The notes below the pieces were generated by a model that saw only the letters and a program-made list of their open reading frames with translations, was not told the origin of the DNA and made no database searches. A stretch of 64,000 nucleotides of DNA from an uncultured Dehalococcoidales bacterium (GTDB lineage: Bacteria > Chloroflexota > Dehalococcoidia > GIF9 > AB-539-J10), in assembly GCA_964586515.1 (NCBI GenBank), contig CAZPGJ010000004.1, forward strand, positions 154,539-218,538, read 5' to 3'. The position numbers were made by a program, and so were the translations under genes. This document shows positions 41,418 to 62,980 of the stretch, piece by piece. The stretch's first letter is position 1. Each line of letters begins with the position of its first letter.

Positions 41418-42056
41418 TTACACTGGTTTGCCCACAGGCATTATGTATAGGGGCTTAATTTGTTCATCTACCCCGAGGACTGTCCTCACCTCTTCATCAT
41501 CGAAGGCGCCAACTTCCACTGTGGCCAGTCCTAAAGCCACGGCTTGAAGATGGATGTTTTCACCTGCATGTCCTACCTCTATGTGAACATATCTCTCTCC
41601 ACGTCTGCCATATCTGTAGGAAGTCCTGTGATAAAGAGCGCAGATGACAATATCCACCGGGGCGTCGATAATAAATTCTTGGTTCGGAGTTGCTTTGGCT
41701 AAATCTGGTCTTAAATCGGCCGGTTTGTGTAAGCTCAAGGAATGGGAATCTGCTTCATAATGGTAAATGCCGGCTTGTAGTTCTTCGGGGGCTTGCTTTG
41801 CCTCGCTGGTAGTGACACAATGTTTGCCAACGACCACAAAAATTTCTAGGGGATAGGTAGCTCCAGCACTGGGCGCTGCCCTAAACCCTCTAGTTCCGGT
41901 GATGCCCTGGGCCGACCAGAGTATTTGACTCAATTGAGGTGAATCTAGCGGCTCCCTACGGTATCTACGAACTGATCTACGCCTTAGTATCGTTTCCTCT
42001 AATGAAACCTTGCCTTTCAACTGAGGAGAAGGAAGCTTAATTATGGTTTGCCCCAT
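41418..42056 (-). CDS. SagB/ThcOx family nitroreductase-like dehydrogenase
   Basis: RRSVRRY, PSAGATYPLE, EVGHAGENIHLQA, VGAFDD. Confidence 0.88.
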   Translation of the reverse strand: MGQTIIKLPSPQLKGKVSLEETILRRRSVRRYRREPLDSPQLSQILWSAQGITGTRGFRAAPSAGATYPLEIFVVVGKHCVTTSEAKQAPEELQAGIYHYEADSHSLSLHKPADLRPDLAKATPNQEFIIDAPVDIVICALYHRTSYRYGRRGERYVHIEVGHAGENIHLQAVALGLATVEVGAFDDEEVRTVLGVDEQIKPLYIMPVGKPV

Positions 42057-42094
42057 GCCAGATTCTTTGCTACACACAGAATAACAAATAATGT

Positions 42095-43552
42095 TTAGCC
42101 CTTGATAACTCCCATAGGTATAGCCATAGCCACTTTTCTGGAAATGCCAGCTTGGTGAACAACATCTATGACTTCAGTAACATCTTTGTAAGCCTGAGAA
42201 GCCTCTTCAGCTAGCGCAGAAATGCTTCCTGCTTTAACAGTGATACCTCTACTTTCTAGTTCTCGTATGACATCTGTTCCTCTGATACTTCGTTTGGCAG
42301 CACCCCGGCTTAGTACCCTACCCGCGCCGTGACAGGTGGAGCCAAAGCTTTCCTTCATGGCTTTCTCAGTACCCACAGCAACAAAGGAACAACGTCCCAT
42401 GTCTCCGGGCACGAGCACAGGTTGCCCGACCTCTCTGTAGCGTCTGGGAGTATCCTTATGGCCTGCTGGAAAAGCCCTGGTAGCTCCTTTGCGGTGAACG
42501 CAGACCTTAACCTTGCGACCATCTATCGTGTGTTCTTCTATTTTGGCTATGTTATGAGCAACATCATAAACCTGCCTCATGTCCAGTTTCTCAGGACTTT
42601 TACCGAAAATTTTAGAGAAACTTTCTCTAACCCAGTGGGCAATGCACTGTCGGTTAGCCCAGGCATAGTTAGCAGCGCATGCCATAGCACTTAAATAATC
42701 TTGGCCTTCCGGTGACTCTATGGGAGCACAAGCAAGTTGCCGGTCGGGGAGCTTTATCCCATACTTTGATACCACCTGCTCCATGACCCGCAGATGGTCA
42801 GTACATACTTGGTGACCAAAGCCGCGAGAGCCTGTGTGAATTAAAACCAATATCTGACCTATCTCAGCGATGCCCATAATGTTAGCTATGTGGGAATCGA
42901 ATATCTCCTTCACTACTTGAATCTCAAGAAAATGATTTCCTGAGCCTAATGTCCCTGCCTGAGGTGTACCCCTTTTTGCTGCTTTATCGCTTATTTTATT
43001 GGGATCAGCACCACCGAGACATCCACCTTCTTCAGTAACATCCAAATCTTCCTCGGAGCCCAGGCCACGCTTCACTGCCCAACGGGCCCCTTCAACCATC
43101 AAGTGATTCATCTCTTTTTGACTTACCTTTATTTTCCCTTCAGAGCCAAGGCCTGATGGCACGTTAAGAAATAATTCATTAATGAGCTCACTAATTCTAG
43201 GTCGCACTTCAGCTTCGCTGAGATTGGTACGCAATAACCTTACACCACAATTAATATCATAACCCACTCCCCCTGGGGAAACTACACCATCCTTAATATC
43301 CATTGCTGCCACTCCGCCTATAGGGAAGCCATAGCCCCAGTGGATATCCGGCATGGCAAGGGAGTAACCTACTATACCGGGAAGAAAGGCAACATTAGCA
43401 ACTTGTTCTGGCGTTTGTTCCTCACGTATAGATTCCAGCATTTCCTTACTGGCATATATTAGGCCAGAAACCCTCATACCAGTTTTATAATCTTCGGGAA
43501 TCTTCCACCGATAATCGTCTATCTTAATAAGCTGTCCTTGCCAGCGCGCCAT
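42095..43552 (-). CDS. rtcB: RNA-splicing/repair ligase RtcB
   Basis: PDIHWGYGFPIGG, YDINCGVR, GSGNHFLE, HRKGATRA, STCHGAGR. Confidence 0.96.
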   Translation of the reverse strand: MARWQGQLIKIDDYRWKIPEDYKTGMRVSGLIYASKEMLESIREEQTPEQVANVAFLPGIVGYSLAMPDIHWGYGFPIGGVAAMDIKDGVVSPGGVGYDINCGVRLLRTNLSEAEVRPRISELINELFLNVPSGLGSEGKIKVSQKEMNHLMVEGARWAVKRGLGSEEDLDVTEEGGCLGGADPNKISDKAAKRGTPQAGTLGSGNHFLEIQVVKEIFDSHIANIMGIAEIGQILVLIHTGSRGFGHQVCTDHLRVMEQVVSKYGIKLPDRQLACAPIESPEGQDYLSAMACAANYAWANRQCIAHWVRESFSKIFGKSPEKLDMRQVYDVAHNIAKIEEHTIDGRKVKVCVHRKGATRAFPAGHKDTPRRYREVGQPVLVPGDMGRCSFVAVGTEKAMKESFGSTCHGAGRVLSRGAAKRSIRGTDVIRELESRGITVKAGSISALAEEASQAYKDVTEVIDVVHQAGISRKVAMAIPMGVIKG

Positions 43553-43563
43553 CTCCGTAGCTC

Positions 43564-43983
43564 CTAAATGTCGAGAATTATCTGTGCCCTGTAGCCATCA
43601 CTATTTTTATCTAGCTTTAACATATGATATGTGGCTGCTTTTACCCCTCTCTTTATCTTGTGTTTCACTGGGTCAAAACCTTCTCCATGGCAGGTAGCCT
43701 TAAGTTCATTGTGAGTCAAACTTTCAATATCGAATCGGTTGAACAGAATGTGTTTGGCATCAAAAAAGTAAATGAGTTCATTAAGCCATTCAACGAGCAA
43801 GCTGTCTCTGTCATCGCTGCTTACTTTCAGATTGAAGTGCGATTTCTCTTCAATACTTTCGGGCTCAGTGATCAAACTGAACAGAGCCAGAGCAGCGTTG
43901 GAAAAGAGCTCTTCGATATCTGTCCCATAGGCAATGATGCCTATGTCGGCAGCGTGGTCAATTATTTCAAAAGCCTTTTTCAT
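43564..43983 (-). CDS. Archease
   Basis: FEIIDHAADIGI, VKAATYH, ILDI C-terminus; directly upstream of rtcB. Confidence 0.92.
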   Translation of the reverse strand: MKKAFEIIDHAADIGIIAYGTDIEELFSNAALALFSLITEPESIEEKSHFNLKVSSDDRDSLLVEWLNELIYFFDAKHILFNRFDIESLTHNELKATCHGEGFDPVKHKIKRGVKAATYHMLKLDKNSDGYRAQIILDI

Positions 43984-44301
43984 TCCTCTAATGTCCATTA
44001 TACTAAAATAGCAACGACATCTCCATTTATGCTGGCTCTTTTTGCACTTCGCTCAAGCTGTTGTTACAATCAATGCTGAAGACAGTAAAGTAGGCATCTT
44101 CCCCGCGAGCTGTGCGATTTGGCAAATTATCAATTACCTTGTATTATTAAGGTAGTAATGGGCAAATGCCTGTGTCCAATTTGACTTCTGTGTGTGGAAA
44201 GTTATATGGTTCTAGCGATGCAGCGAATAAATACTAAAGACAAAGTGAACCTACAGCTAGCAGCCCATTATAAAGAATTTGTCTGTAAAAGGTAGATAGT
44301 A

Positions 44302-45420
44302 ATGCCCTCCCAGCATTATATGGAATGTGCTTTATCTCTGGCTAGGTTAGCTATGGGATGTACCAGTCCTAACCCGGCAGTGGGGGCAGTAGTTGTTAAG
44401 GATGGACTTGCTGTCGGCATGGGATATACTCAGCCTGCTGGCTCGGATCATGCTGAGATTATGGCGCTCCGTCAGGCTGGTGATAAGGCGCAGAGTGCTA
44501 CCATGTATGTTACCCTGGAGCCTTGTCCTCATTATGGGCGCACTCCACCTTGCACTGAAGCTATAATTGATGCCGGCATTTCAGAGGTTCATATAGCCTT
44601 GCTTGACCCCAACCCTGTGGTTTCCGGGCGTGGGGTAAGCAGGCTAAATGCAGGAGGCATCAAGACCCATATAGGCATGTGTCAGCAAGAAGCTTATGAA
44701 ATAAACGAGGCTTATATTAAGCACATTACTACGGGATTACCATTTGTCGTGGCCAAATTCGCCATGAGCCTTGACGGCAAGATTGCTACCAAAACTGGTG
44801 ATTCTAAATGGATAACCAAGGAAGAGGCAAGAAAGTATGCGCATGCCCTGCGCCATACTGTCGACGCCATAATGGTAGGGGTAAACACCATTATTGCTGA
44901 TAATCCTCGCCTCACCGCTAGAGGTTGTGGTGGTAGAGGTGGTATAGGAAAAATGCAGCCTCTACGTCTGGTTGTTGATAGTAAAGGAAAAGCACCGTTG
45001 AACGCTCATATTTTTGAGCCGCCAGGTGAGGTTTTGCTCGCTGTAGCAGCACCTTTTGACTCTGTAAAGAAGGAAAAATTTGTACAGGCGGGTGCCGAAG
45101 TACTGGAATTGCCGGCCAGAGAAGGCTCGGTAGATATTGTGGAGTTATTGAAGTTGTTGGGGAGGCGAAAGATTGTCACTGTCCTAGTGGAGGGAGGTGG
45201 TAAGCTTCTTGGTTCACTTTTTGACCACCACTTAGTGGATAAAGTATTGGCTTTCATTTCACCGATCATCATTGGCGGCCATGAGGCTGTATGTGTGGGG
45301 GGAAATGGCGTTGACAATATAGCGAAGGCTCTGCGCCTTAGTCGAGTTGACATTAAGAGTTTCGGTGATGACATATTAGTTAGTGGATACGTGGAGAAAC
45401 AATTACCGCAAGAGGCGTAG
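44302..45420 (+). CDS. ribD: Riboflavin biosynthesis deaminase/reductase
   Basis: PNPAVGAV, HAE, TLEPCPH..TPPC, SLDGK, VEGG. Confidence 0.95.
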   Translation: MPSQHYMECALSLARLAMGCTSPNPAVGAVVVKDGLAVGMGYTQPAGSDHAEIMALRQAGDKAQSATMYVTLEPCPHYGRTPPCTEAIIDAGISEVHIALLDPNPVVSGRGVSRLNAGGIKTHIGMCQQEAYEINEAYIKHITTGLPFVVAKFAMSLDGKIATKTGDSKWITKEEARKYAHALRHTVDAIMVGVNTIIADNPRLTARGCGGRGGIGKMQPLRLVVDSKGKAPLNAHIFEPPGEVLLAVAAPFDSVKKEKFVQAGAEVLELPAREGSVDIVELLKLLGRRKIVTVLVEGGGKLLGSLFDHHLVDKVLAFISPIIIGGHEAVCVGGNGVDNIAKALRLSRVDIKSFGDDILVSGYVEKQLPQEA

Positions 45421-45437
45421 GTTCTTAGGTGTCTGGT

Positions 45438-46079
45438 ATGTTCACAGGGATAGTTGAAGAGATTGGTATAGTTAAGGGAACAAGCCGAGACCACTTGGCC
45501 TTCGAAGCCCACAAGGTACTTGAAGGAACGAAGGTGGGCGATAGCATAGCTGTTAATGGTGTTTGCTTAACTGTTGTCTCCTTGGAAAATCATGGCTTCA
45601 GTGTTAATGTTATGCCTGAGACATTACGTTGCACTAATCTTGGTAGACTTCATTATAGCGACCAGGTAAATTTGGAAAGGGCACTGGTACTGGGGGGACG
45701 TCTGGGTGGCCATTTGGTGTTGGGTCATGTCGATGATACGGGAGAGGTAATGGATGTAATCAGCGAAGAAACCGCGCGTATTATGAGGATTTCAGCACCA
45801 GCTAAACTGATGCCGTACATTGTAGATAAAGGCTTTATCGCTGTTGATGGTGTTAGTCTCACCATTGTAGACCTCGATGATTTTTCTTTTGTTGTGTCTC
45901 TAGTAACTTATACTATGGAACATACTACGTTAGGGGGGAAAAGACCTGGGGACGTAGTCAATTTAGAAATAGATATCTTAGCTAAATATGTGGAAAATCT
46001 TAAGGAGCGAAAAAGGCAAAGTTTAAACCTCGAGTTCCTTAGGGAATATGGATTTGTAGGGGGAATAGATGCTGGCTAG
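45438..46079 (+). CDS. ribE: Riboflavin synthase
   Basis: [35 protein letters not shown]. Confidence 0.95.
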
Positions 46080-47271
46080 TATTTCAGAGGCAATTGAAGA
46101 TATAAGGGCAGGCAAGTTTATCATTATCGTTGATGATGAGTCGCGTGAAAATGAAGGGGACCTGGCCATGGCTGCCGAGAAGGTTACCCCTGAGGCGATA
46201 AATTTTATGGCTAAGCATGGGCGAGGACTGATTTGCTTTCCTATTACTGGCCAAAGGCTCGACGAATTAGGAATACCACTGATGGTTACCAATAACACCT
46301 CACGCTACTCCACTGCCTTCACAGTTTCTATTGAGGCCAAGGATAAGGTTACTACTGGCATCTCTGCCTTTGATCGAGCACAAACCATAAAAACGGTGCT
46401 TGATCCTAATACCAAGACGGGTGACCTAGCTCAGCCTGGGCATATATTCCCTATTCGAGCCAAAGATGGTGGGGTGCTAGTACGCGCAGGGCACAGCGAA
46501 GCTATTGTTGATCTGGCTAGACTGGCTGGGCTTTATCCTGCTGGTGTTATATGCGAGGTCATGGATGAGGATGGCACTATGAGGCGTCTGCCTCAACTTG
46601 AAGCTATGGCTTCTAAGTTTGACTTAAAGATAATAACCATCGTTGATTTGATTGCTTACCGTCTTCGCCATGAAAAACTGGTGCAAAGAGTAACCGAGGC
46701 TAAGCTGCCTACTAAGTATGGCGAATTTACAGCCGTGGCTTACAAGAGTGCTGTTGATGCCGCTGAGCATATCGCTCTAGTCAAAGGTGACATATCGAGT
46801 GATGAACCAGTCTTAGTACGTGTTCACAGTGAGTGTCTCACCGGAGATGTCTTTGGTAGTTTGAGATGCGATTGTGGAGCCCAGATTGAAATGGCTTTGC
46901 AAAGAATAGCCAAAGAAGATCGAGGTGTTTTCGTTTATATGAGACAGGAAGGGAGGGGGATCGGGTTTCACAACAAGCTTCGCGCCTATGCTCTTCAGGA
47001 TCAAGGAATGGATACCGTGGAGGCTAATATAGCTTTAGGTTTTGCTCCTGATTTAAGAGATTATGGGGTGGGTGCCCAGATTTTGGCCGACTTAGGTTTA
47101 CATAATATTCGATTACTCACCAATAATCCTAAGAAAGTGATCGGGCTGGAAAGCTATGGGATTAAAATAGTAGAGACTGTTCCCCTAATAGCCCCGGCTA
47201 CTCCTTATAATATCCACTACTTAGAAACCAAGCAAAAGAAGTTAGGACATATTCTAAATCTAGAAAAATGA
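46069..47271 (+). CDS. ribBA: DHBP synthase / GTP cyclohydrolase II
   Basis: [33 protein letters not shown]. Confidence 0.96.
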
Positions 47272-47358
47272 CAAATGACAAAGCTCAAACGTCAAAGAGA
47301 GATAGTGTTTAGGCAGTTGAAATTGATTTGAAATTTGGATTTTGAAATTTGGCATTTG
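47266..47358. repeat. Heptamer repeats in inverted arrangement
   Basis: AAATGAC AAATGAC AAAGCTC AAACGTC, then a short spacer, then TTTGAAA TTTGGAT TTTGAAA TTTGGCA. Confidence 0.7.
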
Positions 47359-47376
47359 TTTATAGGAGGGTAAATA

Positions 47377-47847
47377 ATGGCTAAGCATCATTATGAAGGT
47401 ATCCTGATAGGAAAAGGTCTTAAGTTTGCTGTGGTTGTTTCTCGATTTAATGAGTTAATAACCACGAAGCTGCTTGAGGGAGCAAGAGACGCTTTATTGC
47501 GCCATGGTGTTGCTGAGGGGGACATCGATATTGTCTGGACTCCAGGTTGTCTAGAGATCCCACTTATAAGCGAAAAATTAGCACAAAGTAATAAGTATGA
47601 TGCCATAGTATGTCTTGGTGCGGTAATTCGCGGCGGCACTCCTCATTCTGAGTATGTTGCTTCCGAGGTAAACAGAGGAATTGGCAGAGTGAGTTTGGAT
47701 ACTGGCCTACCCGTAATACAAGGCATAATCACAGCTGATACTTTGGAGCAGGCCATCCAGAGAGCAGGGGCTAAAGAGGGTAATAAAGGCTTTGCTGCTG
47801 CGGTAAGCGCTATTGAAATGGCAAATCTGCTTAAGGCTATTCAGTGA
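47377..47847 (+). CDS. ribH: Lumazine synthase
   Basis: [25 protein letters not shown]. Confidence 0.95.
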
Positions 47848-48091
47848 CTTTATAGACTTTGTCACCTCGCCTTACTCTATCAGGAACTTTTATGCCCACA
47901 AGGTCACCGCGCTTGCCCGCGGTGATGTTAACGCGCTCAATCTGCATAGATTCTACAGCTAGTTCCATGTCTGTAGTGCTGCCCTTGATATGGATTTTAT
48001 CACCAATTTTCAATGTGCCGCTTAGCTCTATACCAGCTACCACAGGCTTAGCAAAAAAATCTGTTACCTTGCCAATCTCTACATCCGGCAT
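47837..48091 (-). CDS. Small translation-factor-type beta-barrel protein
   Basis: [43 protein letters not shown]; GGAGG RBS before ATG 48091. Confidence 0.75.
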
Positions 48092-48203
48092 TTCCAGGAC
48101 CTCCCTTCTTAGAGATAATGTACACCCTTCGGGGTCAAAAATCAACAGGCGAAGGTGATACTGTGACATTCAGCTGGCAGTGATTCAACAAACAGAAGGG
48201 CTA

Positions 48204-48232
48204 TTGACACCGAAAATAGAGAATATTAATAT
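48204..48232 (+). promoter_or_regulatory. Sigma70-type promoter
   Basis: TTGACA-17 nt-TAATAT. Confidence 0.55.
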
Positions 48233-48392
48233 TGAAGTAGCAACTCAAAAGCCCAGCTAAGCCTGGGACCATATGGATCTATAAATCGAACGTCTGAAGA
48301 AAAAGACAACACCGTAATCGTTTCACAATTTTGCTCATTTTGAATGGACTAAGCCAATGTGAACCACAAATATTCAGAAAGGAGGTGATTCC

Positions 48393-48599
48393 ATGCCACA
48401 GTCGATAGAGTATCAAAAAGTGATGACGGAGATAGTGTACATCAATCTGCCTGGCCCAAGCGAGCCCACCGACAGAATGACGGGTGGTGAACTATTGCAT
48501 GGTTTTCTAGCAGATTTGTATGCGACGTCAAACCCAGATACCAAGGCCTTTGTCATGGCTTTGTGCAACAAGTGGAATGTGCGTTACCGCCAACTGTAG
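48393..48599 (+). CDS. Hypothetical 68-aa protein
   Basis: AAAGGAGGTGAT RBS, upstream promoter, plausible composition. Confidence 0.75.
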   Translation: MPQSIEYQKVMTEIVYINLPGPSEPTDRMTGGELLHGFLADLYATSNPDTKAFVMALCNKWNVRYRQL

Positions 48600-48920: not shown

Positions 48921-48949
48921 TTGACAAGTTGTGCTGCTAAGCTTATGAT
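48921..48949 (+). promoter_or_regulatory. Sigma70-type promoter
   Basis: TTGACA-17 nt-TATGAT. Confidence 0.7.
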
Positions 48950-48996
48950 AGTAAATCAATGAACCCACAAATAAATCTAATTGGAGGTAGTGCGCC

Positions 48997-49317: not shown

Positions 49318-49318
49318 A

Positions 49319-52374: not shown

Positions 52375-52740
52375 TTGCCACGAGCTAGAAGCGGGAAAGT
52401 TACTCACAGACGACATAAGAAAGTACTTGAACTGACCAAAGGGCATCGGGCTGCCAGGCACAAGCTTTATACTGTAGCTCATCAGTCTATGCTTCATGCC
52501 TTAGATTATTCCTACCGTCATCGTCGTGAGCGGAAAGGCGACTTCAGAAGGCTATGGATTACTCGCATTAATGCTGCGGCACGGGCTAGAGGGCTTACTT
52601 ACAGTCAGTTTATAGTCGGGTTAAAAAAATCAAATGTAGAAATCGATCGCAAGATGTTAGCTGAGATGGCAGTCAAAGATCCTGAAGGTTTTGCTACATT
52701 AGTAGCTTCGGTAACTGAGAATAACTCACCCCGCTTGTAA
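52375..52740 (+). CDS. rplT: 50S ribosomal protein L20
   Basis: [25 protein letters not shown]; TTG start. Confidence 0.96.
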
Positions 52741-52799
52741 TGACGTTATGCCTGAAAAATCCAGGATTTTTGGATAAGGATAACATTGCGTGGCAGTCG

Positions 52800-53834
52800 A
52801 TGCTGAAACAACTCAAAGACCTTCATGCGCAAGCTCTCGAGGAGCTAAATAAAGTTGATAATCCGCGGGAGCTGGAGTTGTGGCGCGTTCGCCACCTGGG
52901 TAAGAAAAGCAGTTTAACTCAAATTCTACATTCTTTGGCTGCCTTGCCCCTGGAAAAACGACGAAGGGTGGGCGCCCAAGCTAACGAAATCAAGAGAGCT
53001 TTAGAGTCAAGCCTGGAAGAGAAGGGGAAATTACTACAGGAAGCCCTCTTGGCCTCTCCTCGGCAATCCCAAAGATTAGATGTTACCTTGCCTGGTCGGC
53101 CTCTCCCGGCAGGCCGACTTCACCCCACCACTCAAATACTTAAGGAAATTTGCGACGTTTTCCAAAATATGGGCTTTCAGGTAATTGAAGGACCTGACGT
53201 GGAGTGGGATTACTATAACTTTGAGGCCTTAAATATCCCCCAACACCATCCGGCGCGAGATATGTTTGCTACCCTATGGATAGATGCAGGCATAGGGGAG
53301 AAAGCCAGACTTTTGCGTACGCACACTTCCCCGATGCAGATCAGGTTGATGGAGAGGGAACGACCGCCAATAAGAGCCATAGTACCGGGTCGAGCTTATA
53401 GATATGAAGCGACCGACGCCACTCACGAATCTATGTTTTATCAGGTTGAGGGTCTGGCTGTGGATAAGGGCATAACCCTGGCTGATTTAAAAGGCACCTT
53501 GTTTGACTTTTGCCGTTGTATTTTCGGTGAGGAAAGGAAAATGCGCTTCCGCTGCGATTACTTCCCCTTCGTGGAACCCGGGGTAGAGGTAGCCATCGGG
53601 TGTTCAGCCTGCGGTGGGGTCGGCTGCCGACTGTGTGGCTACAGCGGCTGGATCGAAATACTGGGGGCGGGGATGGTGCATCCCGACGTCCTGGCACGGG
53701 TGGATATCGACCCCAAACTTTACAGTGGTTTTGCTTTCGGGTTGGGAGTTGAGCGTATACCTATGCTGCGCTATGGTATTGATGACATCCGCCTCTTTTA
53801 TAGCAATGACCTCAGGTTTCTGAGGCAGTTCTAA
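52800..53834 (+). CDS. pheS: Phenylalanine-tRNA ligase alpha subunit
   Basis: [30 protein letters not shown]; start trimmed to ATG 52800. Confidence 0.96.
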
Positions 53835-53850: not shown

Positions 53851-56322
53851 ATGAAAGTTTCCCTCAAATGGCTCAAAGATTATGTTGACATAAAACTTGC
53901 TCCTGAAGAGCTGGCCAAGATGCTAACCATGGCTGGCTTGGAGGTCAAAAGCATGCAGGCTATAGGTGGCACCTGGGATAATGTGGTAATAGGGGAAGTA
54001 GTAGCAGTAAATCCTCATCCTAATGCTGACCGCCTTAAACTAGCTACAGTTGACGTGGGCACTGAGCAAGTCACCACGGTTTGCGGTGCCTCTAATATCG
54101 GCCTTGGTCAAAGAGTGACTTTTGCCCACATAGGAGCCCGGCTTATAGACCCGCACACTGGAGAAGCTATGGTGCTAAAGCCGGCTAAGATTCGTGGCGT
54201 TGTTTCCGAGGGCATGGTCTGCTCGGAGAAGGAGCTGGGGATTTCTGATAGTCACGAGGGCATTTTGGTATTGCCGCCGGAGGCGCCCATAGGCGCTCCT
54301 CTCGGTGCTTATCTGGGCGATGTGATTTTGGACTTAGATATAACGCCCAACCGCCCCGATTGCTTATCCGTAATTGGCATCGCCCGCGAAATTGCTGCCC
54401 TAACTGGCGAACCGCTGCGCTTGCCTGAGATTCGTTACGAAGAAACGGAAGATTCAATAGGTTCTTTCGCATCCGTTGACATAGCCGCTCCCGACCTGTG
54501 CCCCAGGTACTGTGCCAGCTTGGTTACCGGAATCAAGATAGCCCCCTCCCCGGGCTGGCTACAGCAGCGTCTCAATAGCTGCGGCATGCGTCCCATTAAC
54601 AACGTGGTTGATATTACTAATTATGTGATGCTGGAATATGGTCAGCCCCTTCACGCCTTTGATTATCATAAGCTTAGTGGCCGACAAATTATCGTTCGTA
54701 GGGCTGGAAATGGTGAGACCATAACTACCCTCGATGGCTCAAAGCGTGCTCTTATTCCGGACATATTGGTTATTGCCGATAAGGAGGAAGCTGTCGCTGT
54801 GGCTGGAATCATGGGTGGTCTGGATTCCGAAGTTACGGACAAGACTGACAGTATCCTCCTGGAATCGGCAAATTTTAACCAGGCTGCCATTCGTCGAGGT
54901 TGTAGCCATCTTCAATTCCAAAGTGAGGCCTCGATGCGCTTTGATAAAGGGCTTAATAGCGAGCTTCCGCTACTACCATTGAAACGGGCCACTCAATTGC
55001 TGCTGGAGCTAGCCGGCGGCAGGGTAGCCAAGGGCATAATTGATGTTTATCCCGGGGAATCAGAACCAAAGCCTATATTGCTTTCTGCCCAGGAAGTGAA
55101 ACGTATTTCGGGCTTGGAAGTTACTATTGAGGAAATGCTTAAGGTATTAAAAGCCTTAGGCTTTGAATGCCAGGAGGACAGTGCGGGCTCGCAGATTTTG
55201 GTGTCTGCGCCTTACTGGCGCAGCGACATCAAATGCTCTGCCGACCTCGTGGAGGAGGTAGTCCGCATCATCGGTTATGAAAAAGTCCCGATCACCAGGC
55301 TTGGCTCTCCTTTGCCTCAACAAAAATCAAAATTGTCACAGCCAGCCCAGCAGAGCAATCTCAAGGAGAAATTGCGCAACGTCCTGACTGGCTTTGGCTT
55401 TCAAGAGATATTAACTTATTCTCTGGTCAGCCTGGAGAAGTTGCAAAAGCTTTCCTCGAAGCTTGAGTTGAGTATTCCGCCTTTAAAGGTAGCTAACCCC
55501 ATGACGAGGGAACAAGAATACCTGCGTACCAGCTTGCGGGCTGGTCTTCTGGCCACGTTGGCACATAACCAAAAATTTGAGCAAGCCGGCATAAGGCTCT
55601 TTGAAATTGGCAAGGTATTCTTGCCCCAGCATCCTCACGTCATTGCGACCCTGAGTGAAACGAAGGGGAAGCAATCTCAAGAAGAAAGAGAGCTACCCCA
55701 GGAAAAAGAGATGCTCTGTGCTGTACTCAGCGGCGCAAGGGCAGAATTGTCCTGGCAAGCTGATAAAGAGCCGCTTGATTTCTTTGATGCCAAGGGGATA
55801 GTGGAGAATCTCCTGAACCATTTGGGGCTGAAACCGAGTTTTGATACTGGCGATGATGAAATTCTATTCCCGGGAAGAGGGGCTAATATAATCGTTGAAG
55901 GTGACAAAGTAGGTGTTGTAGGGGATATGCACCCCAGGGTAACACAAGCCTTTGAGCTTTCTGGTGCTGCTTGCCTTATAGAAGTTGACCTGGAGAAATT
56001 GTTGACCAAGATTACTGGAATAAAGGAATATCAACCTCTTCCACGGTTTCCCAGCGTAACCAGAGATATCGCCTTAGTAATAGATGAGCAAGTGAGCTAT
56101 GGAAGAGTAGAGAACATAATCCAAAGCTTCCCGCTAGTGACAAAAATAACTCTCTTTGACCTCTATCGAGGAGAGCAAATAGCCGAGGGCAAGAAGTCTT
56201 TTGCCATAAGGATTATTTACCAATCGCCCAGTCATACCTTGACCGACGAGGAAGTTGACCGGACTCAGGAACAGATGCTTAGTAGGCTGAATCAGGAACT
56301 TGGTGCCAGTTTGAGGGATTGA
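53851..56322 (+). CDS. pheT: Phenylalanine-tRNA ligase beta subunit, with two repeat-derived in-frame inserts
   Basis: [35 protein letters not shown]. Confidence 0.97.
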
Positions 56323-56432
56323 TTCTCTGAATCTAAAGTGAACAATCTGGACTTAATTTCGCTACTAGGTTTAATTTCCTCGAACTTTGCGAAGGTACAA
56401 AGCCTGTGTTAGGCGAAGTTGTCGGAAGCCTA

Positions 56433-57287
56433 TTAAATATTTTTGTAATAAAGAATTTCAGTTATTTTATAGGTAGCTTTGAGAACTTTAAATGCAATTT
56501 CATCGATTTCCATGTCACGGATTATTTTATACTCCTCCAATTTATCAACGGTTACTTTATAGTCCTCTTCTTTTTCGAAGATCTTTTCATATCCTCCTTC
56601 CTTTTTAGGGATCAATTTGTATGACTTTGCCTTACCTTCTGCACCTCTAACCTTTATATTTTTTCTGTTTTTAGCAAAATTCACCATCCACACGATATCT
56701 CCATGGATGAATTTATCCAAAACTTTCCTGCCTTCTTGACTTTTGAATTTAAGTTCCTGAAATGCCTCTTCAATTTCTTGTTTTTTCTCCTTTGGAACTT
56801 CTTCGATTAATTTAACTAAGGAGTTATACTTCTTATCCTTCTTCAACCATTCCAACTTCTTCAATATAACTTCAGATAATTCAGCGTTCCTGGTGGTTTC
56901 CTCCCTTGCTAACTTCTCGGCTAACCTTTCTCTTAGTCCAGACTCAATTGCGGTCCTACATAGACCAATTGTCCCTGCGGGAACTCCTGCTCTAAAACAC
57001 ATACTAGCAAATGTCAAATATTTGAAGATGTCCTTTTCACGCCGAACCCTTTCGAACTCTATGTTTCCTATTCTATCTCTATGTTTCAACAACTCATTAC
57101 TGATATTATTAGCTGCAAGCTCTCGGATGATTTGCTGCTCATGTAGAAAACCATAATTATTCGTTAGCATTTTGTCTATCCCCTCAATATCAGTATCTTT
57201 GGGTGTAAACCCATAGTGATATTTCACTATGTTTTTAATTCGTGCTTTTGCTTCACCAGAGATTGAAGACACCTTTGTTCCGCTCAT
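56433..57287 (-). CDS. AT-rich hypothetical protein, possibly HEPN/DUF4145-like
   Basis: 284-aa ORF with MCFRAG...TIGLCRTAIESGLRE helical pattern; composition visibly unlike its neighbours. Confidence 0.6.
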   Translation of the reverse strand: MSGTKVSSISGEAKARIKNIVKYHYGFTPKDTDIEGIDKMLTNNYGFLHEQQIIRELAANNISNELLKHRDRIGNIEFERVRREKDIFKYLTFASMCFRAGVPAGTIGLCRTAIESGLRERLAEKLAREETTRNAELSEVILKKLEWLKKDKKYNSLVKLIEEVPKEKKQEIEEAFQELKFKSQEGRKVLDKFIHGDIVWMVNFAKNRKNIKVRGAEGKAKSYKLIPKKEGGYEKIFEKEEDYKVTVDKLEEYKIIRDMEIDEIAFKVLKATYKITEILYYKNI

Positions 57288-57336
57288 GTTTAGGCTAAAC
57301 TTCTATAACTACTTGTTTACAAACCAAGTGTCTGTA

Positions 57337-59052
57337 TTACTCAGCTAATTCTTCCTTCAGTAGCCTGTTAACCTCGGCGGCCAAATTGTCTAAAGACAAA
57401 AGCTGGGCTTTGTTCTCCGCGCGCCATTTGGCCTCCACACTCTGGCTCTGTAAAGTGCGTGGGGATAAGGTCAAGCGCAGTGGTATTCCCAGGAGGTCGG
57501 CGTCGTTGAATTTAACGCCGGGAGACTCCTCACGGTCATCGAAAAGCACCTCAATGCCCTCTTTTTGCAAATCTTGATAAATCTTTTCCGCCGTAGGGAG
57601 GACTGCCGATTTTTCTAACGATAGGAGGCAAAGGTAAACTTGATAAGGGGCTGCGGAGAAAGGCCAGATAATACCTTTATCATCATGGCTTTGTTCTATG
57701 ATGGCAGCCAGCAACCGTCCCAGTCCAATGCCGTAGCTGCCCATAACAATAGGGCGGGACTTGCCATCGGTATCCAGGAACGATGCCCCGAATCTCTCAC
57801 TGATGAAGGTTCCTAGCTTGAATACATGCCCCACTTCGATGCTTCGGGTATACGTGAGCTTGTTGCCACACTTGGAGCAGCTGTCTCCAGACCGAGCCAA
57901 GGCAATATCAGCCATAAGGTCAACCTGGAAGTCCCTGGGGTAATTGGCATTCCTGAAGTGATACCCCGGCTTATTAGCGCCGACAATGAAGCTGGAGCCT
58001 GAAGTTATAGAATCATCAGCTACGACTTTTATTCCTTTTATACCTATGGGTGAAGCAAAACCAGCCACAAGTCCAGCTTCATTCACCTCGCCTTCCGTAG
58101 CCAGGCGAAGCTCAGAGCATTTTAGATTGTTTCTCAACTTCGTCTCGTTGACTTCCAGATCGCCCCGAATGACAACGAAGACGAATTCTCCGTCAGCATA
58201 ATAAAACACCGCCTTAAGCGTTTGGCTTGTCGGCACACCGATAAAATCAGCCACTTCCTCTATGGTCTCTGCATTCGGCGTGGCTATCTCCTCGAGGGGT
58301 AGAAGATTCTTCGCTTTGCTCTGGACAGCGGTTTTGGCAAATTGAGCCTTTTCAACATTGGCGGCATAGCCACAGTTGGAGCAATAAATAACCTCATCTT
58401 CACCGTCTTCGGTGAAGACCATGAACTCGTGGGAATCCTTGCCCCCTATAGCGCCACTATCGGCTTCTACCATTAACGCCGGCAGGCAAAGGCGGGCATA
58501 GATATTCTTGTATGCCTGACACATCTTCTGGTAACTCTCATCCAGGCCAGCTTCATCGGCGTCAAGGCTGTAAAGGTCTTTCATGATAAACTCGCGGACT
58601 CTCAATAAACCGCCGCGGGGACGGGGTTCATCGCGAAGTTTTACCTGTATTTGATAGAGGAGCAGGGGAAGCTCCCGGTAACTTTGCACGTATCGGTGGA
58701 CAAGGTCGGTAATAACCTCTTCATGGGTGGGTCCCAGAGCCAGTGTGTGCTCCTTGCGGTCGGTTAAGGTGAAGAGAGACTTGCCGAAGGATATATCCCT
58801 GCCTGATTGCTGCCACAGTTCAAGAGGCTGCAACACGGGCAGCATCACTTCCTGCCCGCCGGCTTTATCCATTTCGTCCCTGACTATATTCTCTATCTTT
58901 CTGAGCACTCGCCACCCCAGAGGCAGATAGGAGTAAATACCGGCAGCCTCCTGAGCAATCATGCCTGCCCTGAGCAGTAGCTGGTGGCTGACGCTTGCTG
59001 CTTCAGCAGGCGCCTGCCGTAATGTCTTGCCAAAAAGCTTTGAGAAACGCAT
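57337..59052 (-). CDS. proS: Proline-tRNA ligase (with INS editing domain)
   Basis: LGPTHEE, RDEPRPRGGLLRVREF, GAIGG, IEVGHVFKLG, GSYGIG. Confidence 0.97.
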   Translation of the reverse strand: MRFSKLFGKTLRQAPAEAASVSHQLLLRAGMIAQEAAGIYSYLPLGWRVLRKIENIVRDEMDKAGGQEVMLPVLQPLELWQQSGRDISFGKSLFTLTDRKEHTLALGPTHEEVITDLVHRYVQSYRELPLLLYQIQVKLRDEPRPRGGLLRVREFIMKDLYSLDADEAGLDESYQKMCQAYKNIYARLCLPALMVEADSGAIGGKDSHEFMVFTEDGEDEVIYCSNCGYAANVEKAQFAKTAVQSKAKNLLPLEEIATPNAETIEEVADFIGVPTSQTLKAVFYYADGEFVFVVIRGDLEVNETKLRNNLKCSELRLATEGEVNEAGLVAGFASPIGIKGIKVVADDSITSGSSFIVGANKPGYHFRNANYPRDFQVDLMADIALARSGDSCSKCGNKLTYTRSIEVGHVFKLGTFISERFGASFLDTDGKSRPIVMGSYGIGLGRLLAAIIEQSHDDKGIIWPFSAAPYQVYLCLLSLEKSAVLPTAEKIYQDLQKEGIEVLFDDREESPGVKFNDADLLGIPLRLTLSPRTLQSQSVEAKWRAENKAQLLSLDNLAAEVNRLLKEELAE

Positions 59053-59055
59053 ATT

Positions 59056-59301
59056 CTACTCTACTATTATGGTGGGTTTCTTAAATAATTTATACGATAC
59101 AAAATTTATAAGTAAAACTGCGCCCTCGCCCTTACAAAACGAGCAAGAAGGTTCAGTACTCACCACATACTCGCTAACACTTGGCTCATGAGTACCACCG
59201 TGGCACTTTGGACATATAACTTTTCTCGGTGTCAATAACTGTGTCAAAAACGTGAAAGTGGCTATAACTAGACTGATTATTGCTAAAGTAACTGCTAACA
59301 T
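59056..59301 (-). CDS. Small membrane-anchored zinc-finger protein
   Basis: N-terminal TM helix, CPKCHGG and CSFCKGEG (DnaJ-type CxxCxG repeats); stops 3 nt before the proS start. Confidence 0.55.
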   Translation of the reverse strand: MLAVTLAIISLVIATFTFLTQLLTPRKVICPKCHGGTHEPSVSEYVVSTEPSCSFCKGEGAVLLINFVSYKLFKKPTIIVE

Positions 59302-59457
59302 GATACTCTTTCCTTTATCTTGTCATTTTTCAAATAAAAGTTATTGATCTACCTCACCCCGAATCCCCTTAGTAGCTCCCTTATTTTAGGAATATTTTCA
59401 GTCATTTTGTTCCTCCTTTGGTATACAAAAGTATAATGACCCTGAGATAGCTAATTA

Positions 59458-60507
59458 TTAGCTGGCCATAGCTTCTATTTCCCTCATCAAAGCTGCTACA
59501 AAATCCTTTTCCTGAAGCACCCTAATCTTCTCGCCTTTTTTGAAAAGAGCACCCTTGCCCTTGCCGCAGGCAATGCCGACGTCGGCATCCTTAGCCTCAC
59601 CGGGGCCATTGACGATGCAGCCCATAACTGCCACTTTAACAGGTTTGCTTAATTTTTCCAGGCGTTTGCTTACTGCCTCAGCCAGAGCAATGATATCAAC
59701 TTCAGCCCGGCCGCAGGAAGGGCAGCTCACTAAGGTGGGACCTCGTTCGCGAAGCCCCAAGCTTTTTAGAATTTCGTAAGCCACGAATACCTCTTCGCAG
59801 GGATGAGCGCTGAGAGAAACGCGTATGGTATCACCAATCCCCCGATAGAGAAGTATGCCGATGCCTATGGCGCTGCGTATGGCTCCCGTCCGGGGTAGCC
59901 CGGCCTCTGTGACGCCCAGATGGAGCGGATAGGGCATTTTATCGGCAATCATTTGATAAGCCTGAATAGTGGTGAGAACATCAAAGGCTTTAAGGGAGAC
60001 CTTGATTAAATCGAAGTCCAGGCTTTCCATAAGCCTTACCTGCTCTAATGCCATGTTGACCATGCGCTCAGCTGGCGGGGCCTTGGGCTGAAAATCGGCC
60101 GGTAAACTGCCGGCATTTACCCCGATACGGATGGGCACCTCTCTTTCTTTAGCAGCAGCTACCACCTTGGCAATTTGCTCTTTGCCTCCTATGTTACCGG
60201 GATTGAGGCGAAGTCCATCAACACCGGCCTGCAGCGCAGCCAAAGCCAGCCGGTAGTCAAAATGTATATCAGCGATAAGAGGTAAGGAAACGCTCCTTTT
60301 TATAGTTGTGAGGCTTCCGGCAGCTTTCTTATCGGGGACTGCTACTCGCACGATTTCACAGCCGCAATCCTCTAGTTTCCTAATCTGGTTTATAGTGGCC
60401 GGAATGTCACGGGTATCGGTCTTGGTCATAGACTGCACCACGATGGGCGCATCGCCGCCAACGATTACGTTGCCAATTCTCAATGGTTTGGAGATTCGAT
60501 GTATCAT
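59458..60507 (-). CDS. ispG: HMBPP synthase
   Basis: VQSMT, ADIHF, RLNPGNIG, CPSCGR, VMGCIVNGPGE. Confidence 0.96.
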   Translation of the reverse strand: MIHRISKPLRIGNVIVGGDAPIVVQSMTKTDTRDIPATINQIRKLEDCGCEIVRVAVPDKKAAGSLTTIKRSVSLPLIADIHFDYRLALAALQAGVDGLRLNPGNIGGKEQIAKVVAAAKEREVPIRIGVNAGSLPADFQPKAPPAERMVNMALEQVRLMESLDFDLIKVSLKAFDVLTTIQAYQMIADKMPYPLHLGVTEAGLPRTGAIRSAIGIGILLYRGIGDTIRVSLSAHPCEEVFVAYEILKSLGLRERGPTLVSCPSCGRAEVDIIALAEAVSKRLEKLSKPVKVAVMGCIVNGPGEAKDADVGIACGKGKGALFKKGEKIRVLQEKDFVAALMREIEAMAS

Positions 60508-61808
60508 ATTCCGAAGCCCTTTGGTAGACGCCAGATATCTACAGATGTTATTAAAACTACGAGTGCAATTAAGAAGGCAGTCCCGATGGTATAGGCCAGG
60601 CGCATTGTTCGAGGCGAAAGACGCTTCCCACGCCTGACCCCTTCGATTAATGCCACCAGCATCCCTCCTCCATCGAGAGGAGGTATGGGGAAGAAATTGA
60701 ATATTGCAAGACCCAGGCTAATCATACTGGCCATAAATAACATGCTGCTGGCACCGGAAGTGCGTACCACTTCCACCGTTAATTGACCGGCGCCTATCGG
60801 TCCAACGAGGGCGTTGCTCGGAGTTTTTATGATTTCAGGGATAGCCTTTACTATGAGCACAGGCATATAAATGATATCCCTAGCCCCCAAATAGACTGCC
60901 TTCCACACAGGAGGTCGCTCTTGTTCGATATGAGCCCCGTCTACCCATCGCAGCTCTACACCCGGCAGGGTTTCGTAGCTGGCATTAGTCAAAGAGGCTG
61001 CAGTCTGGGTCCCGTCTCGCCACAAAACCAGATTTATTGTTCCACCCTCAGGAACGGAACGCAGAGCGCTGGACATGCTCTCGTTATTGTATATGAGTTG
61101 TCCATTGATATAGTGGATGTAATCACCGGCTCTAACGCCAGCCTCATAAGCTGGTGAGCTTTCGTCCACTTGACTTACCATATTCCAGTAAATGTAGACG
61201 CCAACCACTCGCTGCCCTTCTGACGGGTTGAATTCCGGCTTCGCCGCAGTTTGTATTTGTTGCCCGTTCCTGAGCAGAAGCAAGGTTATTTGTGCCCCTT
61301 GTGCGACTGAATTTATTATGTTTTGCATATCTCCTTGTGTATGAACGGGTTGACCATTTACCTCCAGGATTATATCTCCGGGCTCGATGCCCGCTTGTTC
61401 GGCAGAAGAATTATTTACCACTGCTCCGACCATAAGCCCGTTGCCGGCAGGGACACCTACGGGTAGCCCAAGAAAAGCACTGAGCAGAATAAAGGCCAGA
61501 ACGATGTTCATCACCGGACCGGCAGCATAAATTCCTAACCTGGTCCAGGGTCCTTTACCGGCCAGACTTCGGGGTACGGTGGGGTCATTTTCTCCAGCAG
61601 CCTTAACAAAAGCTCCCAGAGGTATGGCATTAACTGAGTATATTGTCTCACCTCGTTTAATACCAAAAAGTCGTGGAGGAATACCTATGCCGAACTCTTC
61701 TACCTTGACTCCGGTACGTTTGGCAGTAATGAAGTGCCCTAATTCGTGAAGACACATTGCCACAAATAGAGCTACTACGAAAAGAATAATGATTACGGCA
61801 ACGCTCAT
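60504..61808 (-). CDS. rseP: M50 intramembrane metalloprotease with two PDZ domains
   Basis: HELGH, NFFPIPPLDGG, two PDZ-like segments. Confidence 0.92.
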   Translation of the reverse strand: MSVAVIIILFVVALFVAMCLHELGHFITAKRTGVKVEEFGIGIPPRLFGIKRGETIYSVNAIPLGAFVKAAGENDPTVPRSLAGKGPWTRLGIYAAGPVMNIVLAFILLSAFLGLPVGVPAGNGLMVGAVVNNSSAEQAGIEPGDIILEVNGQPVHTQGDMQNIINSVAQGAQITLLLLRNGQQIQTAAKPEFNPSEGQRVVGVYIYWNMVSQVDESSPAYEAGVRAGDYIHYINGQLIYNNESMSSALRSVPEGGTINLVLWRDGTQTAASLTNASYETLPGVELRWVDGAHIEQERPPVWKAVYLGARDIIYMPVLIVKAIPEIIKTPSNALVGPIGAGQLTVEVVRTSGASSMLFMASMISLGLAIFNFFPIPPLDGGGMLVALIEGVRRGKRLSPRTMRLAYTIGTAFLIALVVLITSVDIWRLPKGFGI

Positions 61809-61834
61809 CTCTTATCTCTATATCCCGGGTTGCT

Positions 61835-62980
61835 TCATCGCCCAAGCTCCCCGCAGTGACCGGGGGAAAAGCGTGTAGCGCATTCCCTTGCCCAGTTATC
61901 GGCAGCCAGTATTTCCTCCAGGGATGGCTGGCTGATGTTCCGATGTTGCTCCAGTGTTTCTTGCACAATTTTGGCTATATTGGGAAAACTTATTCTATGG
62001 TTGAGAAAGAGCTCTACAGCCACCTCGTCCGCGGCACAAAGCACTGTCGGGTAAGTTCCTCCTAATTTGCCAGCATCCACAGCTAGTTTGAGACAGGGAA
62101 ATCTATCATAGTCTACGGGCTCAAAGTTCAGAGAGTTGATTTTATTCCAGTCAAGGCGGGGTAGTTCTGAATTAGGCCACCGGCGGGGATAGGAAAGAGC
62201 ATATTGAATAGGCAATCTCATATCAGGCCAGCTAAGCTGGGCTTTCAGGGAACCATCCATAAACTCCACCATGGAATGAACGATAGACTGGGGATGAATT
62301 AATATTTCAATACTATCAAAGGGGAAAGAGAAAAGCCAATGAGCTTCGATGACCTCTAATCCTTTATTCATGAGCGTTGCTGAATCTATGGTTACCTTCC
62401 GTCCCATCTTCCATACAGGGTGCTGAAGAGCTTGCTCCGGGGTCACCCTAGCCAATTGTGACTGTGAATAGTCATAAAAAGGTCCTCCAGAGGCAGTGAG
62501 AAAAAGCCTCCGCGGTTTATTTTCTTCCCCCTGCAAGCACTGCCAGATAGCACTATGCTCACTATCAATAGGCAGAATTTGAGCGTGATGGAGGCCGGCT
62601 TCACGAACAATAATTTCACCGGCCATCACCAATACCTCTTTGTCAGCTAGGGCAATCGTCTTGCCTGCCTGTAAAGCCGCTAAAGTAGGGCTCAGTCCTG
62701 CCTTACCTGCAGTGGCCACGATAATGAAATCGGCCTCGGGATGGCTAGCTATTTCTTCTACGGACAGAAATTCCCCGCCATAACTAATGTCAGGCCCCAC
62801 TGAGGAACAAAACATTTTGGGCTGAAATTCACTAATTTGCCTTTCCAGAAGTTTAAAATTTTTGTTCCCTGTCAGAGCTACTACTTTTAATTCGTCAGGC
62901 AAGGCACGGATTACATCTAGAGCCTGCCGCCCTATGGAGCCCGTCGAGCCCAGGATAGCTATTTTTTTCACACCACCCAC
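61835..62980 (-). CDS. dxr: 1-deoxy-D-xylulose-5-phosphate reductoisomerase
   Basis: LGSTGSIG, PIDSEHSA, IDSATLMNKGLE. Confidence 0.96.
   Translation of the reverse strand: MGGVKKIAILGSTGSIGRQALDVIRALPDELKVVALTGNKNFKLLERQISEFQPKMFCSSVGPDISYGGEFLSVEEIASHPEADFIIVATAGKAGLSPTLAALQAGKTIALADKEVLVMAGEIIVREAGLHHAQILPIDSEHSAIWQCLQGEENKPRRLFLTASGGPFYDYSQSQLARVTPEQALQHPVWKMGRKVTIDSATLMNKGLEVIEAHWLFSFPFDSIEILIHPQSIVHSMVEFMDGSLKAQLSWPDMRLPIQYALSYPRRWPNSELPRLDWNKINSLNFEPVDYDRFPCLKLAVDAGKLGGTYPTVLCAADEVAVELFLNHRISFPNIAKIVQETLEQHRNISQPSLEEILAADNWARECATRFSPGHCGELGR

Follow-up and report, generated by a model that had tools for sequence, protein, structure and literature searches.

CGTC/TGTC-tagged hairpin repeats and their in-frame copies in housekeeping genes of an uncultured Dehalococcoidales bacterium

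Short hairpin repeats with an unpaired CGTC or TGTC tag lie between the genes of a 64,000-nucleotide stretch of DNA from an uncultured Dehalococcoidales bacterium (assembly GCA_964586515.1, contig CAZPGJ010000004.1, positions 154,539 to 218,538; hereafter the window, to which coordinates refer), and alignment with related genomes places DNA derived from the same repeat, as whole units read in frame, in four of its genes. As assigned with Pfam, these are the gene for a SagB-type nitroreductase (41418-42077, minus strand), pheT (53851-56322, plus strand), proS (57337-59052, minus strand) and dxr (61835-62980, minus strand). The aligned alleles show copies of repeat DNA written into protein-coding genes, and the copies that persist there change the length of the gene by a multiple of three and stand with the tag first. 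We consider it very probable that this Dehalococcoidia genome hosts hairpin repeats of the repetitive extragenic palindromic (REP) type, copies of which were written into genes and which spread through a trans-acting activity, through gene conversion or through both.

Reading and folding of the intergenic copies gave a unit plan that runs, from 5′ to 3′, through an unpaired YGTC tag (CGTC or TGTC), a basal stem of 5 bp, a GA/GAA internal loop (2 × 3 nt), an apical hairpin and a 3-nt tail. The unit is therefore asymmetric, with the tag at one end and the tail at the opposite end. Its size ranges from 28 to 90 nt, the minimal unit being the 28-mer GTCATTGCGAGCGAAGCGAAGCAATCTC with the centre GCGAAGC, and d(GCGAAGC) is a classic, very stable GNA-triloop DNA mini-hairpin. 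The tag was unpaired in every DNA and RNA fold computed, and C or T precedes GTC in all 15 exact intergenic left arms. The apical hairpin is exchangeable and measures from 2 to about 17 bp, and the unpaired tail is usually CTC, otherwise CTA, CCC or CTG. Among 48 distinct units, drawn from the window and from related loci, the basal stem was ATTGC/GCAAT in 26, ATTCT/AGAAT in eight, ATCCT/AGGAT in one and ATTAC/GTAAT in one; Watson-Crick pairs occupied 222 of their 240 stem cells, and the stem arms covary at the nucleotide level. The longer intergenic units had folds far more stable than those of shuffled sequence, with z between -3.8 and -4.75, and the minimal unit, by nearest-neighbour rules, was no more stable than shuffled sequence. 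With at most one mismatch allowed, the left arm GTCATYSYGAG matched 28 times in the window against 5.9 expected, a number that none of 100 shuffles produced, and every one of the 15 exact left arms lay outside credible coding sequence. A preliminary description of the window had reported an intergenic palindromic repeat, and the excess of left arms and the covariation of the arms bear it out. Rfam at gathering thresholds returned only tRNA from the whole window, and gave no match at E ≤ 1 for positions 2150-8250.

Repeat units at the same codons of related genes

The window was compared with loci of related genomes (L001 to L030; related loci total 2.0 Mb) and with loci from other phyla (L204 to L206), the nearest PheT and nitroreductase homologues being found in metagenome-assembled genomes (MAGs) named 'Dehalococcoidia bacterium'. 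At the first of two sites in pheT (Table 1), the entire inserted block spans about 55627-55680, corresponding to residues 593-610 (18 residues). Scored with a position weight matrix trained on intergenic copies only, the unit at this site reaches 30.2 bits, which ranks it among the intergenic copies; in 300 codon shuffles, the 19-kb coding set did not attain this score once. Among 120 PheT homologues of 82-88% identity, taken together with the window, four length classes occur (805, 819, 823 and 828 residues), and site 1 is the sole internal indel. The protein alleles are an empty one (FLPRG--KDLPEE), ..HPPVIASEAKQSQEE.., that of the window and ..VIASDLPAKAWQAGAKQSQ... Aligned against the empty L001, the filled DNA alleles consist of the minimal 28-mer, of a unit with the apical module CCCTGAGTGAAACGAAGGG, or of a unit with the 27-nt hairpin CCTGCCCGCCAAGGCTTGGCAGGCGGG, which is also found within intergenic units of the window (2349-2405 and 6684-6742).

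The solved beta chains of phenylalanyl-tRNA synthetase (PheRS), 2rhs_B and 3pco_B, have a gap or a much shorter loop at site 1. Across 80 GTDB species, the insert was present in 20 of the 33 nearest in PheT identity and in none at or below 61% identity, and on a neighbour-joining tree of PheT its distribution is patchy, with the empty L001, which retains the ancestral flanks RG-KD, nested among filled alleles. This patchiness points to recombination or to repeated gain and loss. In L030, site 1 holds a left-arm-only copy as well as a full unit.

At site 2 of pheT the decayed unit scores 19.8 bits, a value that 17% of the codon shuffles reached and that is not significant alone. At the same codons L019 reads ATG TCA CTG CGA GCG AAG CGA AGC AAT CTC (MSLRAKRSNL), one base off the canonical unit, and L018 is near-perfect; species of at least 69% identity have 5 extra residues here, and orthologues of at most 68% identity, together with L020, are 5 residues shorter. 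A third pheT site, at about codons 443-455, carries a perfect unit encoding NVIASEAKQSP in the sub-clade of L028 to L030 only, the window being without it.

In proS, the codons that hold a decayed unit in the window hold a perfect GTCATTCTGAGCGAAGCGAAGAATCTC in L002; other species have VIASEAQQS, double units or units with apical modules, and the empty allele, an 8-residue linker, is found in L001, L008, L010 and all distant ProS. Both arm subfamilies occur at this site (ATTCT/AGAAT in L002, ATTGC/GCAAT in L029), and one apical module is carried on different arms (in L006 and L009 versus L030). A further match in proS (58123-58174; 23.3 bits, the highest within proS and the second best in coding sequence) was rejected as chance: it encodes a conserved editing motif, RGDLEVNETK, the amino acids of which are the same in three syntenic relatives, where the DNA has no right-arm match.

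The dxr unit forms the end of the gene. DNA and protein alignment with L001 to L003 gave the tail GHC.EPE.RSNPGIER* in these relatives, coded by GGTCACTGCG.GGAGCCTGAGC.ACGAAGCAATCC, and the window gene has a 1-nt deletion and an earlier, new TGA, which shorten the product to 381 residues against 389. Dxr of L009, L012 and L027 ends without the repeat tail, and the Pfam domain DXPR_C ends at residue 366. The Dxr of L020 has a much longer C-terminal extension containing another repeat-coded peptide (YHSEGAKRPKNL), which would make the 3′ end of dxr a recurrent landing site as well.

At the nitroreductase site, close relatives read VIASEAKQAP, and homologues at or below 68% identity are without the 9 residues. 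Three homologues in the PDB have gaps of 10-17 residues at the insert. The AlphaFold2 (AF2) model of the nitroreductase has a mean predicted local distance difference test score (pLDDT) of 96, and its sole internal dip falls on residues 81-90, the insert, with a block mean of 72; by DSSP, the insert sits between strands E70-76 and E96-101 and contains the short strand E81-83.

All four genes are full-length open reading frames (ORFs) that keep all their Pfam domains, and the inserts sit where the protein tolerates extra residues: in the low-confidence stretch of the nitroreductase, in a variable loop of the B6 domain and the B5-B6 linker of PheT (where the surface mapping is by sequence alignment to PDB chains), in the ProS linker before the editing domain and at the C-terminus of Dxr. 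Between 2 and 18 residues are added in the window and up to 28 in relatives, from coding units of 28-56 nt (9-18 residues). The alignments show that the same codon positions were evidently hit or overwritten more than once in related species: pheT site 1 has three to four alleles, and the proS site has arms of both subfamilies as well as shared apical modules.

The preliminary description had placed the repeat in these four genes at five sites, without loss of frame in pheT, proS and the nitroreductase gene and with three frames of the repeat in use, and had named beforehand, as the comparison that could overturn this, an alignment of PheT, ProS, the nitroreductase and Dxr with relatives. The alignment returned orthologues without these residues, as well as relatives with units at the same codons, and the placement and the use of three frames (VIA.., LS..SNL and GHC..) stand. 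A test against shuffled coding sequence, also proposed there, divided the sites, pheT 55638 lying beyond all 300 shuffles and the other four being matched by them. The latter result, along with the proS match at 58123-58174 that is indeed fortuitous, is what a chance resemblance or an ordinary native protein, with no repeat DNA having entered the genes, would produce. The four sites were nevertheless accepted because relatives hold perfect or near-perfect units at the same codons and distant orthologues are without the segment; with the score of pheT site 1, this refutes chance for the five sites, and we regard it as very unlikely. The statement that only left halves are retained had to be given up, since left arm, centre and right arm are found in every coding copy, either in the window or in better-kept orthologues.

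Orientation, conservation and spread of the coding copies

Read with the tag first, the unit is free of stops in all three frames, and five of its six frames are open overall. All six coding sites in Dehalococcoidia are tag-first relative to the gene, and the same holds for all eight units in the six hosts confirmed by Pfam in an independent sample of the exact 28-mer from metagenomes, namely HypF, a DUF1015 protein (two units), TilS (two units), an Eco57I-type methylase, a type IX secretion system (T9SS)-tail protein and MurD. The 14 of 14 credible coding units (11 host genes) in this orientation correspond to P ~ 0.6^14 = 8e-4 if open frames alone set the orientation. Four reverse-oriented 'coding' copies in that sample lie in long ORFs without a Pfam match and were treated as spurious. 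The net length changes are +6, +15, +18, +27 and +42 nt, with variants of +54 and +69, all multiples of three, the unit itself having 28 nt. A target motif was sought at the empty sites and none was found; the string AGGGGC at two empty L001 sites was rejected as a scar, as it matches ancestral PRG/TRG residues.

The recurrence of VIASEAKQS in unrelated proteins could also be read as a protein module of this type that is selected for its function, the intergenic copies being gene remnants. This has very little probability, given that the same DNA is read in three frames into unrelated peptides (VIASEAKQS, SLRAKRSNL and GHC..), that the arms covary as nucleotides, that intergenic inverted dimers and left-arm arrays cannot encode protein, and that third codon positions are conserved. 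All sequences are from MAGs or metagenome contigs, where short repeats can mis-join, and the insert-bearing alleles might in principle be artefacts of assembly or binning at repeats. We hold this for the least probable explanation of all, as the inserts of 28-56 nt are shorter than a read and flanked by colinear pheT, the same alleles occur in dozens of independent JGI, ENA and NCBI assemblies, and the reading frames are intact in every case.

The unit at pheT site 1 is conserved beyond its host gene. Among ten species with the minimal unit at this site, its mean pairwise identity is 0.945, compared to 0.787 for pheT and 0.919 for the best other 28-nt window, and at third codon positions the values are 0.933 in the unit and 0.630 in the gene. 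None of about 800 other pheT windows attains either value, and variation is normal in the codons directly next to the unit. At site 1, the 41-nt variant is 100% identical in species that are not sister taxa on the PheT tree, and so is the 56-nt variant. In the window, the copy at pheT 55638 is intact, and the other four coding copies are decayed and have lost their fold (z ≥ 0). The suggestion that the copies are at different stages of decay thus applies to these four and fails for the pheT unit, which exceeds every other 28-nt stretch of pheT in its conservation across the ten species.

Repeat density is highest in the clade that carries the inserts, and the repeat itself extends well outside it. 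The exact 28-mer was found in at least 120 metagenome contigs, and a 26-mer is 100% identical in a megaplasmid of Novosphingobium resinovorum, where it occurs in at least 40 places, one example (L204, 1499-1577) being a dimer, tags outward, that lies downstream of a stop codon at a distance of about 20 nt. Near-identical copies of 26-28 nt are present in Methylosinus, Methylobacterium and several cyanobacterial plasmids, and Helicobacter canis prophage records have a left-arm-only copy together with one full and one inverted unit (L206, 2980-3092), an arrangement shared with the Novosphingobium megaplasmid. Chloroflexota, Alphaproteobacteria, Cyanobacteria and Campylobacterota prophages bring the range of the 26-28-mer to at least four phyla. 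In another Helicobacter prophage record (L205, 2990-3030), an ORF annotated as a Mu-type transposase contains a copy in reverse orientation.

As to how the units would move, a trans-acting activity may recognise the folded single strand, with its tag and hairpin, and copy units, as HUH/RAYT-type enzymes do for GTAG REPs; alternatively or additionally, gene conversion between dispersed copies may be at work, and selection would then filter the surviving insertions in essential genes. Templated copying is favoured over cut-and-paste because of the replacement-type junctions and the swapping of modules. In support of this account, coding and intergenic copies have apical modules in common; the module GCCAAGGCTTGGCAGGCGGG of the intergenic array at 2335-2525 is that of the pheT allele in L003 and L004.

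Several observations weigh against this account of hairpin repeats copied into genes. Within the window alone, the scores of four of the five coding sites are matched by codon shuffles and cannot be separated from chance. The net length changes differ from the 28-nt unit and ancestral residues are replaced, which does not fit a simple cut-and-paste insertion, and no target-site duplication was visible when empty and filled sites were compared. Among the main ORFs of the 64-kb window, Pfam and NCBIfam revealed no repeat-linked transposase or recombinase, and a tblastn search of the 2.0 Mb of related loci with IS608 TnpA, IS200 and E. coli RAYT gave one spurious match, this being a weak test. 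The AF2 model of PheT, built with 12 close homologues, was unusable (pLDDT 38), and surface exposure was shown for none of PheT, ProS and Dxr.

For the conservation of the pheT unit, the simplest explanation would be that the genomic pool keeps converting it or that the hairpin itself is under constraint. A more specific proposal, which we regard as possible though doubtful, is that a putative conserved trans-acting factor recognises the 26-28-mer and repeatedly rewrites the unit, tag-first, at the same codons of essential genes, in a conversion specific for site and orientation, or that the hairpin has been co-opted as a cis-element of the mRNA. Either would account for the pheT unit being conserved more than any other stretch of its gene, and, if true, this proposal would give a handle on how CGTC-type REPs move. 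Selection might also keep the pheT hairpin, and perhaps others, as a cis-acting nucleic-acid element, for example an mRNA structure acting on translation, pausing or decay, or a protein-binding DNA site, with the peptide as a by-product. The identity values of the unit over ten species, overall and at third positions, agree with this, as do the identical 41-nt and 56-nt variants in non-sister species, the strictly tag-first coding copies and the conservation of the 26-28-mer in at least four phyla. We consider it unlikely, however, as empty alleles are frequent and scattered among close relatives, which makes the element dispensable, the other four window copies have no fold, the minimal unit is no stabler than shuffled sequence, no Rfam family matches, and gene conversion from other copies would yield the same conservation. 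We retain hairpin repeats spread by copying, conversion or both as the preferred explanation. The conservation of the pheT unit, the strict orientation and the identity across phyla are not explained by passive decay and point to a putative recognition or copying machinery for CGTC-type REPs.

Intergenic copies and neighbouring genes of the window

The window holds about 16 intergenic copies, frequently as inverted dimers. Dimers with the tags outward lie at 2335-2472, 6670-6797 and 35295-35359, and some arrays have extra left-arm-only copies (2488-2525, 6646 and 28565). The last of the three dimers stands upstream of the true start of a phosphoglucomutase gene, in which the PGM domain begins at residue 49 of an over-long ORF.

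Table 1 Repeat units and arrays in the window, with their strands and main features
Feature	Position	Strand	Details
pheT site 1, intact unit	55638-55678	+	frame a; CGTC tag, ATTGC/GCAAT stem, apical module CCCTGAGTGAAACGAAGGG, CTC tail
pheT site 2, decayed unit	55334-55362	+	frame b; 21/28 identical to the canonical 28-mer
proS site, decayed unit (AVQSKAKNL)	58302-58329	-	frame a; linker before the editing domain
dxr site, decayed unit, last 8 codons and stop (GHCGELGR*)	61828-61861	-	tag read as GHC
Nitroreductase site, decayed unit (VTTSEAKQAP)	41788-41817	-	frame a; 21/28 identical to the canonical 28-mer
Array	2335-2525		long unit 2335-2420 (+) facing 2434-2472 (-), then left-arm-only 2488-2499 and 2514-2525 (-)
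Array after rmlD	6646-6842		left-arm-only 6646-6658 (+); dimer 6670-6757 (+)/6759-6797 (-); unit 6804-6842 (+)
Unit of the ATTCT/AGAAT subfamily, GCA-triloop apical hairpin	8066-8105	+	DNA fold -10.4 kcal/mol, z = -4.75
Unit between ABC transporter genes	24696-24734	-	
Intergenic unit	27616-27655	-	DNA fold z = -4.4
Unit and left-arm-only copy	28494-28577	-	unit 28494-28533, left-arm-only 28565-28577
Tags-outward dimer	35295-35359		35295-35322 (+)/35324-35359 (-)
Decayed intergenic unit (TGTCACCCTGAGCGACAGCGAATGG...)	63864-63898	+	

Besides the four host genes, the region from 41 to 64 kb contains, by Pfam, rtcB, archease, ribD/E/BA/H, thrS, infC, rplT, pheS, ispG, rseP, cdsA and an unknown ORF of 284 residues. 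In thrS, infC, rplT, pheS, ispG, rseP, cdsA and the rib genes, no lineage-specific insertion was seen apart from an anomaly at the start of pheS (52740-52800), where the ORF starts 20 codons upstream of the L001 start, overlapping the end of rplT. These extra 5′ codons are probably a start-codon artefact and not an insertion. The 284-residue ORF (56433-57287, minus strand) lies between pheT and proS and has no Pfam or NCBIfam match. The same slot is empty in the syntenic L001 and L002 and holds three unrelated genes in L003, one of them encoding a HATPase_c_3 protein, and the gap between pheT and proS looks like a variable insertion slot.

Two genes for MazF/PemK-type toxins (7668-8012 and 27855-28424, both on the plus strand) each adjoin repeat units, and the second is preceded by an RHH-like antitoxin ORF. 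A 30-nt inverted repeat, 93% complementary, joins the two toxin neighbourhoods (8153-8182 and 27510-27539). Imperfect tandem repeats of about 10 nt (GAGTTTATTG / GAGTTCATTG ...) at 27540-27612 abut the unit at 27616-27655, and a shorter run precedes the unit at 28494.

The first 36 kb of the window form a glycan and cell-envelope cluster. It includes three very large paralogues on the minus strand (13882-17163, 17280-18782 and 19327-22716) that combine glycosyltransferase and methyltransferase domains and have repeated N-terminal segments in common (direct-repeat families D1-D6). The glycan cluster around these paralogues also holds an AglB/STT3-like oligosaccharyltransferase gene (101-2161) and rmlACBD, and a gene for a '23S rRNA intervening sequence protein', a bAvd-like four-helix bundle, lies between rmlA and rmlC (3795-4157, plus strand).

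Comparison with known palindromic repeats

The closest resemblance is to the CGTC-tagged REP superfamily, and to its CGTC-3 repeats above all (Di Nocera, De Gregorio & Rocco 2013; PMC3733652). In the passages of that paper that describe the superfamily, the tag is CGTC or TGTC, the stem has 8-9 bp starting with A-T, the loop 4-5 nt and the tail the consensus CCA; the repeats are mostly HH (tags-outside) dimers, mainly intergenic and without a dedicated transposase, in-frame intragenic copies exist, including some in tRNA synthetase genes, and Rickettsia RPE-4 and RPE-6 are counted as members. The window repeat is like these in its unpaired CGTC/TGTC tag and A-T stem start, in its HH dimers, which are likewise seen in Novosphingobium (L204) and in the Helicobacter canis prophage (L206), and in being mainly intergenic with some in-frame genic copies, again including tRNA synthetase genes. 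It also has a short tail of 3 nt, which differs in being CTC, CTA, CCC or CTG and not CCA, and in place of a continuous stem of 8-9 bp it has a stem of 5 bp, then an internal loop (GA/GAA) and an apical hairpin that is exchangeable. Back-translation of the CGTC-3 peptide VIAGLDPAI(H) gives GTCATTGCCGGG...CCCGGCAATCC, which, as judged from the peptide, would have the tag and the outer ATTGC/GCAAT in common with the window repeat. In the intragenic REP table of PMC3733652, the peptides of the window repeat do not appear, and its text passages on Chloroflexi mention GTAG repeats only. A full-text literature search for the DNA and peptide strings of the repeat gave nothing relevant, and no paper was found that pairs 'Dehalococcoidia' with 'repetitive extragenic palindromic'. 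The repeat fits best into the CGTC/TGTC REP superfamily, as one more member with a divergent architecture, and the preliminary remark on a CGTC/GTCA tag was apt, the tag being YGTC and the published superfamily including RPE-4 and RPE-6.

GTAG REPs and REPINs are also short hairpins with a conserved unpaired tetranucleotide, form inverted doublets and cluster downstream of genes, and the action on single-stranded hairpin DNA that has been proposed for them also fits the proposal for the window repeat. Assignment to the GTAG/RAYT REPs was rejected, as the tag is YGTC and not GTAG and neither the window nor the related loci yielded a RAYT or IS200-like gene. Intragenic MITEs (miniature transposable elements with inverted repeats; ERIC, BOX and Anabaena MITEs; Delihas 2007, as cited in passages of PMC10969869) are likewise small non-autonomous repeats that add peptides to ORFs. 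MITEs have terminal inverted repeats of 15-30 bp, target-site duplications and a size of 70-300 bp, whereas the window units are far shorter and show neither terminal inverted repeats nor target duplication, and this assignment was rejected as well.

Rickettsia palindromic elements (RPEs; Ogata et al. 2000) are described, in the passages of PMC10969869 and PMC3733652 that treat them, as repeats of about 150 bp confined to Rickettsia, and for a 2024 review of MITEs (PMC10969869) in-frame fusions of the RPE kind are still exceptionally common in Rickettsia and, for the remaining prokaryotes, no more than conceivable. The analogy to RPEs drawn in the preliminary description is upheld: as with RPEs, DNA-level insertions of a palindromic repeat are read in frame in unrelated housekeeping genes, essential ones among them, the genes stay intact and peptide segments are added. 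Unlike RPEs, with about 100-150 bp and a peptide of tens of residues, the units here have 28-56 nt and encode 9-18 residues, they occur in free-living Chloroflexota, and the repeat is found in at least four phyla.

Events of this kind are already known from RPEs and CGTC REPs. New are the lineage, the recurrence at the same site with an allelic series, the strict tag-first orientation, a pheT unit that is more conserved than its host gene, and a 26-28-mer common to at least four phyla. The units make lineage-specific indels in the marker genes pheT and proS and are also the source of thousands of spurious 'hypothetical proteins', a concern for annotation and phylogenomics alike. The empty, minimal, +4-residue and +9-residue versions of one PheRS loop, in PheT proteins that are 83-88% identical, are a natural experiment on the tolerance and acquisition of new loops by essential enzymes. 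In-frame colonisation of proteins by selfish palindromes has so far been known mostly from Rickettsia and a few Proteobacteria, and the case described here comes from uncultured, free-living Chloroflexota.

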